A stretch of 49,898 bases of DNA from Malassezia furfur. Taxonomy: Eukaryota. This document shows positions 14,040-47,008 of this stretch, piece by piece. Below the pieces are notes generated by a model. The model was not told where the DNA came from. It saw nothing but the letters and a program-made list of their open reading frames with translations, and ran no database searches. Positions within the stretch are counted from its first letter, which is position 1, and each line of letters opens with the position of its first letter. The translations under genes were made by a program, and so were the position numbers. The stretch lies in NCBI GenBank assembly GCA_052055015.1, contig JBQJIT010000029.1; one strand, given 5' to 3'.

Positions 14040-14643
14040 TCATTCCGTAGCTGGCGCGGACGACTCCTGACTCTCGTCGATCCAGCTTTGTTCCACGGTG
14101 AGCTTCACCCGGCGCACGTATTCCTTCATGTTTTCGCGGTATAGGGACGCAGCTTCTGCGTTTGCAGGGCTAGGTAAGCCAAGGAGACGGAGCACGTACC
14201 TGTTCGGGTTCGGATCATGAAGGAGACTCTGGATACTTGTGAGGATCGCCGCAACATCGTAGGTCGGGCTCCATCGATTTTGCAGGATATCGAGACACAG
14301 CTCCCCATTCGCATAGACATTCGGGTGGAACATCTTGCTCAGAAATTTCACAGTGGGGGGTTTGTTGGGGTACGATTCGTCAAAGGTCAGCAAGAGCTTG
14401 AATGTGCCATCTTCGAATGGTGTATCCGCTGCGATGTAAGTCACCCTGTGGTACAAAACATACCTGGACCAAAAATCACTGCATTCCAAACCAGCAGGTT
14501 ATCTGCGCAGGGCGCACCGGAAATGCCACCCGGCGGATCGGAAGAGAGGCGCTTGAAATCACGGATGAGCCTACGCTTAGATGGTGTCGACTGTTTCCGC
14601 GGTTAGTCTCCTGTCCCATTCCAGAAAAAAGACCACATACCAT
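14040..14643 (-). CDS. RAD6: Ubiquitin-conjugating enzyme E2 Rad6/Ubc2; 4 exons
   Basis: Spliced protein [16 protein letters not shown]...[18 protein letters not shown]...[25 protein letters not shown]...PN|SPAN. Introns at 14591-14640 (50 nt), 14429-14463 (35) and 14170-14199 (30, in frame). 162 aa. Confidence 0.95.
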
Positions 14644-21398: not shown

Positions 21399-22884
21399 AT
21401 GAGCGATGCGGAGCTGCCGATCGAGACGTTCCTCAAAGCGCAGCCGCGCACGGTACTGAATCGCTTGTACGAGAAGCCAGCGAGCTGTTTGGCCGTGTTC
21501 CGGTAGGTTTTGTTTGCCCTCTCACACAGTCTCTTGCCAATGGTCGCGCGTCAGATCATTCTCAACATACTATTCCTCGACGGGCCACTGACCATCGAAG
21601 ACTGTCTCAAGTTCTTCCAGAAGCGCAACACAACGTGCGTATTAGGCTAACGCAGCGAACACGAAATCCCGCTCGAGCGCATGGAAGGGTTGTCGATCGT
21701 CAAGCTCCGTGCCGACAAGCTCCATCTGAACGACATCTTTCGCAAGGGCATCGTCGGCGCATTGAATGGGAGGTACGCGTGCACGGCTCACGCAGCGGCG
21801 ACTATCACTCTTTCGGCACGCCGTGCAGTGGAAAAGAACACGAAAAGGTCGGCATCGAGTTCCTTGACTCGTACGCTAGGACCCAGTGGGAGACGATCCT
21901 CTACTTCATGGTCGGCAGCGAGCAGTCCACGCCGCCACGTAACACAGTACTTTTTCTCCTGCAGCGCGCTGGACTAATGCAACGCGATGCAAACGATGCA
22001 CGGCAACTCAACATTACGTCTGCAGGCTTCCAGTTTCTACTCCAGGATGTCAACTCACAGCTTTGGGCGCTTTTGTTACAATACCTGCGCATGGCCGAAG
22101 AGCGTAACATGGATCTGGTTGAGGTGCTCGCCTTCTTTTTTACAGTTGGTGGTCTTGAATTCGGACGTGCCTACGAGACCCGTGGCTTCTCGCTGACCCA
22201 AATGCAGACGCTCGAAGAGCTGAGCGATTACGGACTCGTGTATCGGACGAGTAAATCCGCCAAGTACTTCTTCCCGACGCGCTTGGCGGCAACGCTGACC
22301 TCGACGGCCACCTCAGCACTGTCTACCCTCGATGACCAGGAGGAGCAGGGCTACCTCATTCTTGAGACAAACTATCGCGTTTATGCTTATACCTGTACGC
22401 ACTGTCGTCTGACTCAGCCAACCTGCTACGCATCGCGATTCTCAACCTCTTTGTCACACTCAAGGAGCGCCTGCCCAATCTCGTAGTGGGGCAACTGACG
22501 CGCGAGAGCGTCAAGTCGGCACTGAACAAAGGCATCACCGCCAACCAAGTCATCGCCTACCTCACCCATCACGCCCATCCCCAAATGCACAAAAACGTAT
22601 GTCTTCCGCTCACGCAGGACCCGCTGCTCCCTGCGACTGTTTCGGACCAAATTCGGCTCTGGGAGCGCGAAAAGAATCGCGTTGCCACCTGCGTTGGTAC
22701 GCCGCCCACTGACCCAGGCAACCTGTATACCGAGTTCACCTCCATCCACGACTACGAGCAAGTGCGCGACTATGCCAAGAGCCTCGGGGTGCTGCAGTGG
22801 GAAAGCGAGGCAAAACGCATGCTCTTCGTTACCTCTGAGGGGCACGAAAGCGTGCGCGAGTTTATTCAACGACGGAGGGTATAA
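21399..22884 (+). CDS. TFB2: TFIIH core subunit Tfb2/p52; 7 exons
   Basis: LYEKPASCLAVFR, QWETILYFMV, ITSAGFQFLL, FFPTRLA, ILETNYRVYAYT and DQIRLWERE. Introns at 21503-21529, 21635-21655, 21773-21795, 22395-22417, 22597-22617 and 22697-22717 (27, 21, 23, 23, 21, 21 nt) give 449 aa. Confidence 0.92.
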
Positions 22885-33410: not shown

Positions 33411-33451
33411 GGAGTTAAGATGCCACGTGGAACGCACAGACACCGTACGCC

Positions 33452-34189
33452 ATGCTCGGGTTCTTGGCATGGCTGCGGGGGACACGGGTGGACGACGTCG
33501 CCGCACTCGCACGCGAAGCGCGTATACCTAACGACACCAACGATGCGCCACCAACCGTACTCAATGACGTGCCGCCGGATGACCAGGCCCCCGACACCCC
33601 CACACACGTATGGGACCGCGACCCCCACGCAGCGCTACAGGTGCAGCGCTATCGCGAGCTGCAGTACGTGCTCTCGGAAAAAGGCATGCCGCCCGAGCTC
33701 GTACGGCACATCTTGCTGCTGGCCGACGAGGCGCGTATGCTGAGCGTGACGCGCGCCGAGACCATGGTGTACACGGATGACGCCAACGAGTGCTACCTGC
33801 GTACCCCACCGATTCCGTCCAAGCTGCGGCACCACTTTCTTCGGCGTATCGTGGTCGACATCGATAGTCACGATCAGGGATGGAGTGGCGAGCGCAATCG
33901 CAGCTGGCTCGGGACCTACCAGGGTAGCTACACATGGTGGGAGCTTACGCTCGAGCGCCGCAACGAGCAGGGTGAGTGGGAGGAGGTGCACCGCACACAC
34001 CTCACGCACAACATTCATGCCTCGCGGGAGTTTCGTCGACACACACTCGAGTTCCACGTGGATGACTCAATCGCCTTGGATGCTCAACCGGACGATCGGC
34101 TGTGTGTATATGCACGCACGCAATTTGCCGCGTGGGTCAACATTGTACGCTACGCACGGATTAGCATATGGCTCGACTGGGACGCGTAG
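33452..34189 (+). CDS. Conserved fungal hypothetical protein (245 aa)
   Basis: F-box-like MPPELVRHILLLA followed by SHDQGWS...GSYTWWE...HNIHA...ARTQFAAWVN, a pattern I recognise from uncharacterised fungal proteins. Confidence 0.7.
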   Translation: MLGFLAWLRGTRVDDVAALAREARIPNDTNDAPPTVLNDVPPDDQAPDTPTHVWDRDPHAALQVQRYRELQYVLSEKGMPPELVRHILLLADEARMLSVTRAETMVYTDDANECYLRTPPIPSKLRHHFLRRIVVDIDSHDQGWSGERNRSWLGTYQGSYTWWELTLERRNEQGEWEEVHRTHLTHNIHASREFRRHTLEFHVDDSIALDAQPDDRLCVYARTQFAAWVNIVRYARISIWLDWDA

Positions 34190-35123
34190 GCGTTCCGCGG
34201 ATCACCAACGGCACAAATGCTGTGTAAGTACGACACGTACCCCCGACTGCCGGCGCGCCGGGCGCATGGTGCACAATCTCAAAGATGCGCTGCATCACAC
34301 CCCCATGACATGTCACGCTCAGGACTAGATGAGTGCATGGGCGTACCTTTAGCGTCGCGTCCAATGCCCTCCCAAATCGACTCGAGCACGCGGTGCACAC
34401 GCACACGCATTTCGTCGTCCGACTCGCGCGCGGGCTGCGTTAGGCGTTGCGTCGACGCACGGTCCACATCTCGTCCGCCTCCACGAAGCGGTCCGCGAAG
34501 ACGACGTGCATGGGCGCCGTTTGCGCGATCTGCGACCGCGTCCGGCGTTGGTCACATGCATTCTTTCCACACACCTCCCGCAGGTCTTCGTAGATGTACA
34601 AGGTGGACGGCGCGGTATCGATGGCGTCCCAGGTGAGCGCAGCGGTGTCCAAGCTGCGCTGCAGCGGACTGGAGCACAGCACTGTCGGCACCGGCGGTGG
34701 ATCCGGCCCGGCGATTGCCGCGCGCCATGACTCGTAAACCTCCGTTGCCTGGGCACGTCCGAGTGGCGTGAGCGCAGGGTCTGGGCCCCATGTGAGAGTG
34801 CCGTCGCCGTAGCGCATGGCATGGTGCGACTCCCATGCCGCGCTTCCGTACTGCGTTAGCAAGGCACATGCCTTTTCTTCCGCAAGGTCTACATGAGTGG
34901 GTGACGTACTGTGATAGCCTTGCCCGTGCCGCGCAAGGTACACGAGCTTGCATGAGGCATGCTCGTTGCTCGCCGCGTCGATCACGCGCTCAAGATCGGC
35001 CCACGACGATGCCTGCAAGCCAAAGCGCGGAAGCAGCGCTGGCCATGGGCCCGGCTGGTCGTACGCAAAGTATGGTAGGGTCTAGGTTAGCACACGACGC
35101 ACATCAAATGCAATCGACGGCAT
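34161..35123 (-). CDS. PMU1: Histidine phosphatase/phosphoglycerate mutase-like (Pmu1 family); 7 exons
   Basis: The spliced product restores ARHGQGYHNLAEEKYG, DPALTPLG, SSPLQRSLDT and VTCHGGVM. Introns at 35082-35102, 34889-34909, 34851-34871, 34435-34460, 34325-34346 and 34220-34240 (21, 21, 21, 26, 22, 21 nt); 276 aa. Confidence 0.85.
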
Positions 35124-44982: not shown

Positions 44983-47008
44983 CTACATGGCACTGAAGAA
45001 CGCTGCATCGAACGCTTCGGGCTCCAGCTTGCCCTGCTTCATCTTCTTCATGGCGCGCTCCTCGGCCGCCCAGTCCTCCTCGTCGCTCGTGTCCGACGGC
45101 GAAGCAGGCGTCGGCGCACTCGCCTGCTCCTGTAGCCACCGCCGCTTGCGCTCCTTCTTCTCGCGGCGCACATCGCGCGCCTCCTTGCGCCGCTTTTGCT
45201 CGCTCCATGCACCCTCCTGCTTCTTGGCGGGCGCCGCACGCGGCGCGGGAGCCGGCGCCGCATCCTCGCGCGCGAGTCCCGCGACGCGCTGTGCCTCGCG
45301 CCGATGGTCGGCGTACGCAAACGTGCGGAGCTGGGTTAGTGACGTGCACGTACGTCAGGCATCGTATCCTCAAACAGCGACGCGTCGTCGTCGTTCCGCT
45401 CGCGCCACCGCGCGACTTCGGGCATGCGCGGCAGGTTGAGCAGCGCAAACTGGCACGCAAGCCGGTCGAGCGGCAGGTCGGCTAGACGGAAGATGTAGTT
45501 CACCTCGTGCTTCGAGTAGGCACGCACGTAGCTCACAAACGCACGCATTCCCAGTTCGTACAGCGCGCGGTCACTGCGCACCGTCTCGCGCAGCGATCGC
45601 TCGAGCGCTCGGGCATCGTCATCCGTTGCCGGCTCGTCGCCGTACGCGAGCGTTGGCAGGACATAACGCATCGGGCGCAGTGGCACCTGCTTGACCTGCA
45701 GGTATTCTGTGTGAGCGGTGCATACGCACCCACATAGCCCTCCTCGCGGCCCTCGTGCAGCAGCACAATGGCTCGTCCTGTCCGCCCAGCACGCGCCGTG
45801 CGCCCACACCGGTGCGAAAACACCTTGGGATCGTTTGGCGGGTCGTATTGGATCACAACGTCAACGTCGGGCAAGTCGAGACCGCGCGCTGCCACATCGG
45901 TGCACAGCAGCACGGTGCACTGCGCATCTGACGCGCCGGTTCGGTCGGTATCGCGTGCATCGGTGTGGGCGTGCGCAAACGCCTGGAAGGTCGCGTGCCG
46001 TCGCTTGGTCGTTTGCTTGCCGTGCAGCGAAAAGAACTGCAAGCCCTTCGTGTCATGAGGATGCATCTTCGTGTGTTGGCTGAGCAGCGAAAACACATAG
46101 TTCACCTGCGCACACGTTGCAAAGTACACGATGGCCTTGTGCGCGCCATCCTGTGCCTCGCGCCGAAGCAGGCGCAGCAGCTGCGCCAGTTTGTTCTCAG
46201 GGCGCGACACATGGTAAAAGTTGTGCAGCGTCGCGGGCATGCGGATATCCTTGCGCGTCGCCGAGCCCTTGGCCTTGGTCTCGACCTTGACCACCACACG
46301 CACCGGGTTGCGGAGGCCGACGCGGACGAGCTCGGTGAGTGCTTCGGTCATCGTCGCGCTAAATAGCCCCGTGCGTCGCTGCTTGGGCAGATACGCAAGC
46401 AGTGCGCGAATCGGTTCAACAAATCCCAGGTCCAGCAGGCGGTCAGCCTCGTCCATGACGAGTACGTCGAGCTCGCTGGTGCGCACGCCCGGCTTCTTGA
46501 GCAGCTCCTCCATGCGTCCAGGCGTGCCGACGAGGATGTCGGGGCCGTTCTCGCGGAACAGGCGGTAGTCCTCGGCGGGGGACACCTTCAGGCCGCCCAC
46601 CACGAGCTGTACAGGGCCCACGCGCCCGTGCGGTGCGGTTTCGTCCGGCTGCGCATCCAAAAAGTGTTGCAGCACACCGCATGTCTGCTCTGCAAGCTCA
46701 CGCGTGGGACACACGATGACCGCACCGAGATCGTGCCTCTTCAATGCAACTTCACGCCGCCTCAAAATTTCGAGAATGGGTATCACGAACGCGAGCGTCT
46801 TGCCCGAGCCCGTCACGGCCTCGGCGACCACGTCCTTGTGTGAAAGGAAGAGCGGGATGGACGCGGCCTGCACGGGCGTCACCTGTGTATATTCCATAGA
46901 CGCCACGACGTCGAGTCTGTGTGAGTTGCGCACGTACATCCACTCGCTCAGCGGCGGCCGCACGGTGGACCAGGCGCCGGCCGCCATCGCCGTGTCGCTT
47001 TGCGCCAT
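44983..47008 (-). CDS. SPB4: DEAD-box rRNA helicase Spb4/DDX55; 4 exons
   Basis: TPVQ, AVTGSGKT, PTRELA, DEAD, SAT, HRCGRTARAG and AFVSYVRAYSKH. Introns at 46917-46937 (21 nt), 45707-45729 (23) and 45331-45353 (23); 652 aa. Confidence 0.93.

Follow-up and report, generated by a model that had tools for sequence, protein, structure and literature searches.

Two introns of 21 nt each, set around an exon of only 17 nt, very probably interrupt the active-site region of a PMU1-like gene of Malassezia furfur. The sequence evidence suggests that both are removed from the main mRNA as constitutive U2-type introns, which would make the segment between them a micro-exon. The first (intron A) has GT-AG borders and the second (intron B) has GC-AG borders. 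As a matter of judgement, not of computation, we hold the splicing of B to be very likely and that of A to be likelier still. The unit lies in the window, by which we mean the whole stretch of 49,898 nt that was analysed (contig JBQJIT010000029.1 of assembly GCA_052055015.1), and its parts are the following.

34909..34889, minus strand: putative intron A (intron 2 of the gene), 21 nt, GT-AG, GTACGT...CTCATGTAG, phase 1
34894, minus strand: predicted branch A of intron A
34888..34872, minus strand: candidate micro-exon, 17 nt, coding for (N)LAEEK
34871..34851, minus strand: putative intron B (intron 3 of the gene), 21 nt, GC-AG, GCATGT...CTAACGCAG, phase 0, preceded by AAG
34856, minus strand: predicted branch A of intron B

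Along the minus strand, ...CGG CAC GGG CAA GGC TAT CAC A is followed by 21, 17 and again 21 nt, and then by TAC GGA AGC... A preliminary description of this DNA had the coordinates and sequences of both 21-mers and of the 17-nt exon exactly right. It had also read the two introns as in frame and free of stop codons, which the sequence confirms, and had claimed that their removal yields the motif of the Pmu1 family; with both 21-mers taken out we indeed obtain ...RHGQGYH-NLAEEK-YGSAAWES... Because both are in frame and stop-free, a read-through frame (35081..34440, minus strand) runs across them and stays open for 213 codons. Intron A splits the Asn codon of the RHGxGxHN motif. Its signals (GTACGT, CTCAT and GTAG) have the layout of the window's own GT-AG consensus, and those of intron B (AAG|GCATGT, then CTAAC and GCAG) are set in the same 21-nt layout. 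The fold of the minus-strand RNA between 34830 and 34930 revealed no special structure (z = 0.41), and Rfam gave no match within the window.

Applying the same splice signals along the whole PMU1-like gene, we assembled a model of seven exons, as follows.

34161..35123, minus strand: coding region of the PMU1-like histidine phosphatase, 7 exons and 6 introns, 276 aa, stop codon included
Exon lengths in the model, minus strand: 21/172/17/390/88/84/59 nt
Intron lengths in the model, minus strand: 21, 21, 21, 26, 22, 21 nt
35103..35123, minus strand: exon 1, ATG at 35123, coding for MPSIAFD
35082..35102, minus strand: intron 1, 21 nt, GTGCGT...CTAACCTAG, containing an in-frame stop
34910..35081, minus strand: exon 2, whose last base is the first base of the Asn codon
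34931-34923, minus strand: RHG codons in exon 2, with the catalytic His codon at 34928-34926
34461..34850, minus strand: exon 4, YGSAAWES...EMWT
34435..34460, minus strand: intron 4, 26 nt, GTGCGT...CTAACGCAG
34325..34346, minus strand: intron 5, 22 nt, GTACGC...CTCATCTAG
34220..34240, minus strand: intron 6, 21 nt, GTACGT...CTTACACAG, in frame and stop-free

By its predicted product, the gene is a PMU1-like member of branch 1 of the histidine phosphatase superfamily. The read-through piece scores 29.4 bits against Pfam PF00300 (His_Phos_1), for which the gathering cut-off is 21.7, and the 276-aa spliced product can be aligned over its whole length with an outgroup orthologue profile (245 bits). 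The marks of the superfamily are present, namely RHG and the catalytic His of a downstream ...TCHGG..., the latter after removal of intron 5, which brings back the motif ...SVTCHGG... in a form that can be aligned with the orthologues. The likeness to the PMU1/PF00300 family thus comprises RHG, an invariant Asn, the downstream His of ...CHGG... and a full-length alignment to fungal PMU1-like proteins. This putative phosphatase differs from the family in the conserved G-x-H-T-C-D-Q, where His is replaced by Asn and, in the window, Thr by Ala. The Ala codon (gca, 34557-34559, minus strand, in G-K-N-A-C-D-Q) stands where 12 of 12 orthologues have Thr, as do calls from the same lineage including P0001 and P0125. 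This could be a substitution private to the window, at a site otherwise invariant, or else an erroneous base.

The closest named relatives of the read-through protein are Malassezia proteins. The product of exon 4 differs by one residue from the M. furfur CBS 9595 model P0125, and the PMU1-like protein is 85% identical to P0129, from a second M. furfur lineage. P0129 begins MPSITFD|TLPYF, which joins exon 1 to exon 2 as in our model, and the M. brasiliensis model P0002 splices intron 4 (EMWTPARESDD). Neither the read-through protein nor a profile of 12 orthologues found a sequence match among solved structures. The neighbours of the gene encode an acyl-CoA dehydrogenase and a TauD-family dioxygenase. 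On the plus strand, an open frame of 256 codons (33419-34189), with no Pfam family, overlaps the last PMU1 exon (34161-34219, minus strand) by 29 nt; these may be convergent genes with overlapping ends, or the frame may be a spurious one in GC-rich DNA. The gene is unusually dense in introns (6 per 963 nt) and contains four of the eight introns with the exact 21-nt layout in the whole 50-kb window.

Comparison with orthologous proteins argues for the removal of both introns. We built a profile from seven outgroup orthologues (P0005, P0006, P0007, P0008, P0010, P0011 and P0012), leaving out the Malassezia models in question and also P0009, which has internal deletions. The four possible isoforms score as follows against this outgroup profile.

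Fully spliced isoform: 245.1 bits
B-retained isoform: 233.2 bits
A-retained isoform: 229.8 bits
Both-retained isoform: 220.1 bits

Removal of intron A thus gains 13.1 bits if B is retained and 15.3 bits if B is removed, and removal of intron B gains 9.7 bits if A is retained and 11.9 bits if A is removed. We also listed all possible GT/GC...AG pairs with a length of 15-80 nt between 34940 and 34821, as single introns or in twos, which gives 495 models. Among these, 161 are in frame and stop-free, and the model with the two 21-mers ranks first, the runner-up reaching 237.7 bits. Other pairs of splice sites, including a GT donor lying 4 nt inside intron B that would define a 17-nt intron, were out of frame or lower-scoring.

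The spacing of the active site points to the same model. In the 124 homologues fetched, six of which lack RHG, we looked at how far the first Trp lies from the RHG Arg, in residues. The distance is 19 in 113 of the 118 RHG-bearing homologues, matching the spliced model, and the exceptions are the following.

P0001: 33, a read-through ORF call from the window's lineage and the sole homologue at 33
P0004: 21
P0005: 26
P0009: 12
P0093: 11

A search of the orthologues for the inserts STSPTHV and ACALLTQ, whose presence would have spoken against introns, found them in none. Both inserts are carried only by read-through ORF calls of the M. furfur group itself (P0001 and P0131), and P0129 keeps that of B alone. 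Retention had been predicted to insert peptides of seven residues beside the catalytic His. The insertion stands, but it is not the whole effect, since retention of intron A also turns into Ser the Asn that follows the second His of RHGxGxHN, a residue shared by all 12 orthologues. The peptide NLAEEK of the micro-exon is identical in P0129 and P0004. The genomic DNA of a distant relative (L001), the single distant locus obtained from a metagenome scan with an orthologue alignment, reads ...RHGEGFHNVGERVHGSKAW... without interruption. A metagenome scan with a single PMU1-like protein gave no match, nor did scans of genome contigs and viral contigs for the PMU1 DNA of relatives, and no spliced-form PMU1-like protein from transcript assemblies was among the results of the homologue search. 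The 17-nt segment fits a micro-exon, being internal, no longer than 30 nt and coding for conserved residues, provided that intron B is real. At the protein level, the tryptic peptide predicted after ...NLAEEK is YGSAAWESHHAMR for the spliced form and ACALLTQYGSAAWESHHAMR for the form retaining B.

The intron grammar of the window provides a second line of evidence. We searched both strands with a pattern composed of a donor G-Y-R-N-G-Y, a branch motif CTNAY and a terminal Y-AG, and found 67 candidates where 36 were expected. The excess sits at 21-27 nt, with 9 candidates of 21 nt (1.1 expected) and 10 of 23 nt (1.0 expected). Introns A and B share with the window's GT-AG 21-mers a common layout of 6+6+5+4 nt, i.e. 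donor, spacer, CTNAY and N-YAG. The counts by type of donor, with expectations drawn from 200 simulations, are these.

GT donor, 19-30 nt: 38 observed, 3.3 expected
GC donor, 19-30 nt: 7 observed, 8.2 expected
Exact 21-nt layout 6+6+5+4, GT donor: 7 observed, 0.065 expected
Exact 21-nt layout 6+6+5+4, GC donor: 1 observed, 0.2 expected over both strands

As a class, GC-donor patterns are thus not enriched in the window, and the evidence for intron B is therefore position-specific. A GC class of about 1% of introns is too rare to show in 50 kb. The exact layout with a GC donor is expected about twice in a million (2e-6) per position, and its only case falls where the protein alignment asks for a deletion of seven residues. 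Candidates shorter than 21 nt are nearly all nested within longer ones, and 21 nt is the ordinary lower mode, or apparent floor, of the introns in the window.

The in-frame, stop-free state is not special here either, because 14 of the 15 candidates with a length multiple of three are stop-free. These 15 come from 41 candidates, a share that is rough, as in this GC-rich DNA the 30-codon filter of the ORF-joining census passes 41 of 44 acceptors and some nested donors are mischosen. In-frame, stop-free candidates of 21-30 nt lie at 14170-14199 (minus strand), 22697-22717, 22597-22617 and 21635-21655 (all plus strand) and 46917-46937 (minus strand), and the genes with such introns include RAD6, TFB2, a DEAD-box-like gene and others. 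In the RAD6/UBC2 orthologue, a 30-nt candidate corresponds to a gap of 10 residues in the alignment with solved structures, and in the TFB2 orthologue a 21-nt candidate is located at a gap of seven residues in such an alignment. Read-through translations often finish in LTQ, because the introns end in CTAACGCAG or CTCACGCAG.

A third line of evidence comes from the second M. furfur lineage. There, the orthologue of intron B is read in frame as ACATLMQ by P0129 and P0131, and in another frame by P0132. One register alone reconciles both translations, and back-translation thereby fixes all 21 bases, for this one lineage. The length of 21 nt is kept and 18 of the 21 bases are identical. No base of the donor hexamer or of the terminal GCAG has changed, CTAAC has become CTAAT, which is still CTNAY, and the two remaining changes fall in the spacer. 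Read as codons, all three changes would be non-synonymous and the third base is the same in all five unchanged codons. Small as these numbers are, the pattern fits constraint on what would be splice signals. P0001, which was called separately and is one residue from the window, likewise encodes Ala (GCN) where the donor of intron B lies, so the GC donor is not a sequencing error. Intron 4, which is 26 nt long and breaks the frame in the window, has 21 nt and is in frame (VRQSLTQ) in the other lineage. Such a 5-nt indel would be tolerable only by non-coding sequence, and the difference in length implies that tiny introns can drift between states that are visible and invisible to NMD. The model P0004 of Malassezia sp. 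CBS 17886 has NLAEEK-RQ-YG here and is two residues longer precisely where intron B lies. These residues may be truly inserted or may come from a splice site drawn elsewhere; the spacing is hence not absolutely fixed in the genus. Orthologues, intron grammar and conservation in a second lineage all support the two introns around a 17-nt exon of the preliminary description, which are less unusual than was thought.

One might suppose that A alone is spliced and that the GC 21-mer, which never worked as an intron or no longer does, is translated, giving a PMU1 protein with ACALLTQ inserted after NLAEEK. The lack of enrichment of GC-donor patterns is compatible with this, and so are the in-frame, stop-free state of the 21-mer, its annotation as coding sequence in P0129 and the tolerance of two extra residues at this site seen in P0004. 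Codon usage places intron A, read in frame, at the 5th percentile of coding windows and intron B at the 16th; B is thus only mildly atypical and not clearly non-coding by this measure, which is too weak to decide on either intron, as the training ORFs may include antisense frames. Yet, the insert is at odds with the insert-free spacing of 113 of 118 homologues and its retention lowers the score against the orthologue profile by 12 bits. A coding segment would also have to carry the full 6+6+5+4 layout, rare as this is per position, and to have changed between lineages by three non-synonymous substitutions out of three, with no third-base differences in the five unchanged codons and with all splice signals kept. 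Finally, P0129 is demonstrably wrong at two other introns. We therefore consider the translation of intron B unlikely.

The public gene models differ on this point. Not one of the five reproduces the active-site spacing of the family, and the 59-nt segment is handled differently in each, as follows.

P0003 and P0125, M. furfur: start in the wrong frame in exon 2 and jump to YGSAAWES, in effect a 59-nt intron
P0129, M. furfur: intron 1 and intron A spliced, intron B and intron 4 kept, intron 5 read through
P0002, M. brasiliensis: downstream start at MTWGPDP
P0004, Malassezia sp. CBS 17886: NLAEEKRQYG, with two extra residues at site B

The orthologous intron A is thus already spliced in an annotated model (P0129). 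What would be new is the GC-AG intron B, and hence the micro-exon, which lack an annotated counterpart.

Taken at face value, the GenBank models P0003 and P0125 imply that the block 34909-34851 is one GT-AG intron and that the micro-exon is skipped. Both begin in another frame of exon 2 and join straight to YGSAAWES, and the block has a good donor and a good acceptor at its two ends. But 59 is not a multiple of three, which puts the RHG of exon 2 and the rest of the domain in different frames, and such an intron is absent among the 161 in-frame models. The two public models also lose the catalytic RHG and the conserved N-terminus found in P0129 and the orthologues, and the 17 nt that they skip encode the conserved NLAEEK. 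The single intron is thus very unlikely, and skipping of the 59 nt could occur as a minor, unproductive by-product. That nothing is spliced, the read-through ORF being the product or the gene being in decay, is hardly credible. In its favour one can cite the 213 codons of open frame, the existence of ORF calls in the prokaryotic style, P0001 among them, and the Ala of the window at a Thr invariant in 12 of 12 orthologues. But the frame stops inside intron 4 and so misses the C-terminal half of the domain with its ...CHGG... motif; a start codon and the full domain are obtained only if four other introns of the gene are taken out. Moreover, the spliced model runs intact for 276 aa, and retention of A destroys the invariant Asn.

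The models show other faults. Those of M. furfur and M. brasiliensis include an out-of-frame start and retained 21-nt introns translated as ACATLMQ and VRQSLTQ; reading through intron 5 loses the C-terminal catalytic His in a public model, and P0003 removes 27 coding nt (VCGKNTCDQ). In-frame, stop-free introns of 21-30 nt are invisible to ORF logic. The passage on annotation in one Malassezia study requires an overhang of 20 bp at splice junctions (PMC5389616), and an exon of 17 nt, being shorter than this, would probably be rejected by that filter. The practical value of our results is chiefly in annotation. Models might be repaired with a rule that asks for a 6-nt donor, a spacer of at least 6 nt, CTNAY and N-YAG, allows GC donors and takes into account the spacing in orthologues.

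If A and B are both spliced, as we think very probable, they would be recognised through the minimal layout in use throughout this genome, in which the donor (6 nt, G-Y-R-Y-G-Y) and 6 nt of spacer are followed by CTNAY (5 nt) and N-YAG. In both introns, 15 nt would separate the donor from the branch A, and 5 nt the branch A from the acceptor. Weak as it is, the GC donor may be helped by the AAG upstream and by the perfect CTAAC branch motif, and the rest of its hexamer matches the GTATGT class, which is used by four GT introns of the window. The predicted branch A at 34894 in intron A and the donor at 34871 that opens intron B are only 23 nt apart, in a unit of 59 nt overall. Given the footprints of spliceosomes, two complexes are unlikely to fit together on such a unit. 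It is thus plausible that A and B are removed one after the other, in an order that is not predictable from sequence.

One might speculate further that, the unit being too small for two spliceosomes, removal is ordered and mutually exclusive and the weak GC donor acts as a tunable post-transcriptional dial on PMU1. We find this doubtful. If it were true, partly spliced mRNAs would slip past nonsense surveillance and reach translation, both introns being stop-free and multiples of three in length. Retention of A would then leave the enzyme without catalytic activity (Asn to Ser, plus seven residues), retention of B would alter it, and the locus could serve as a natural ruler of how small the footprint of a fungal spliceosome can be. 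The unit is a compact natural substrate with which to ask how small the substrates of a fungal spliceosome can be and whether neighbouring tiny introns must leave in order.

Very short introns have been described in Malassezia. Passages of the genome papers give a mean intron length of 30 bp in M. sympodialis, where RNA-seq supports 5271 of 5350 introns (PMC5389616), and a median of 30 bp in M. restricta (PMC9241646). The annotation passages of three papers set the minimum intron length at 10-20 nt and accept both GT-AG and GC-AG introns as canonical (PMC5389616, PMC6473144, PMC9241646). The window shows the same regime of ultrashort introns, with its own clustering at 21-27 nt and with an apparent floor at 21. 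The text passages returned by our literature search, figure distributions aside, contain no length distribution, branch-site layout or GC-AG count for Malassezia, and the search returned no description of a GC-AG intron, of this micro-exon or of a 21-nt floor in the genus.

Outside the genus, a 2026 paper on the shortest animal introns names ciliates, microsporidia and dicyemids as exceptions to a 30-bp rule, in a passage in which Malassezia does not figure (PMC13644364). The tiny introns of these lineages and of nucleomorphs, about 15-30 nt long, go with a canonical-looking spliceosome and have donor, branch and acceptor packed together, as here; unlike in those lineages, the host in this case is a basidiomycete yeast and the branch motif, CTNAY, is explicit. 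Introns of chlorarachniophyte nucleomorphs measure about 18-21 nt. In Paramecium, introns with a length multiple of three are depleted, a depletion that is not evident among the candidates of the window, as far as our rough census goes (15 of 41).

GC-AG introns are a standard minor class of U2 introns, in which the donors carry a stronger flanking consensus. Intron B, the use of which we predict, resembles this class in its otherwise consensus donor, in the AAG upstream and in its optimal branch motif, and differs from the usual GC-AG introns in having only 21 nt and in abutting a micro-exon. In a passage on the long-read annotation of Coprinopsis cinerea, internal exons of at most 15 nt occur in about 9% of gene models and their omission breaks the models (PMC12230235). 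Likewise, none of the five public models of this gene comes through the 17-nt exon intact; compared with the micro-exons of Coprinopsis, the flanking introns have here 21 nt each, and exon and introns together take up 59 nt. Tiny introns, in-frame stop-free introns and basidiomycete micro-exons are all known already, and the unit described here is an extreme of their compaction.
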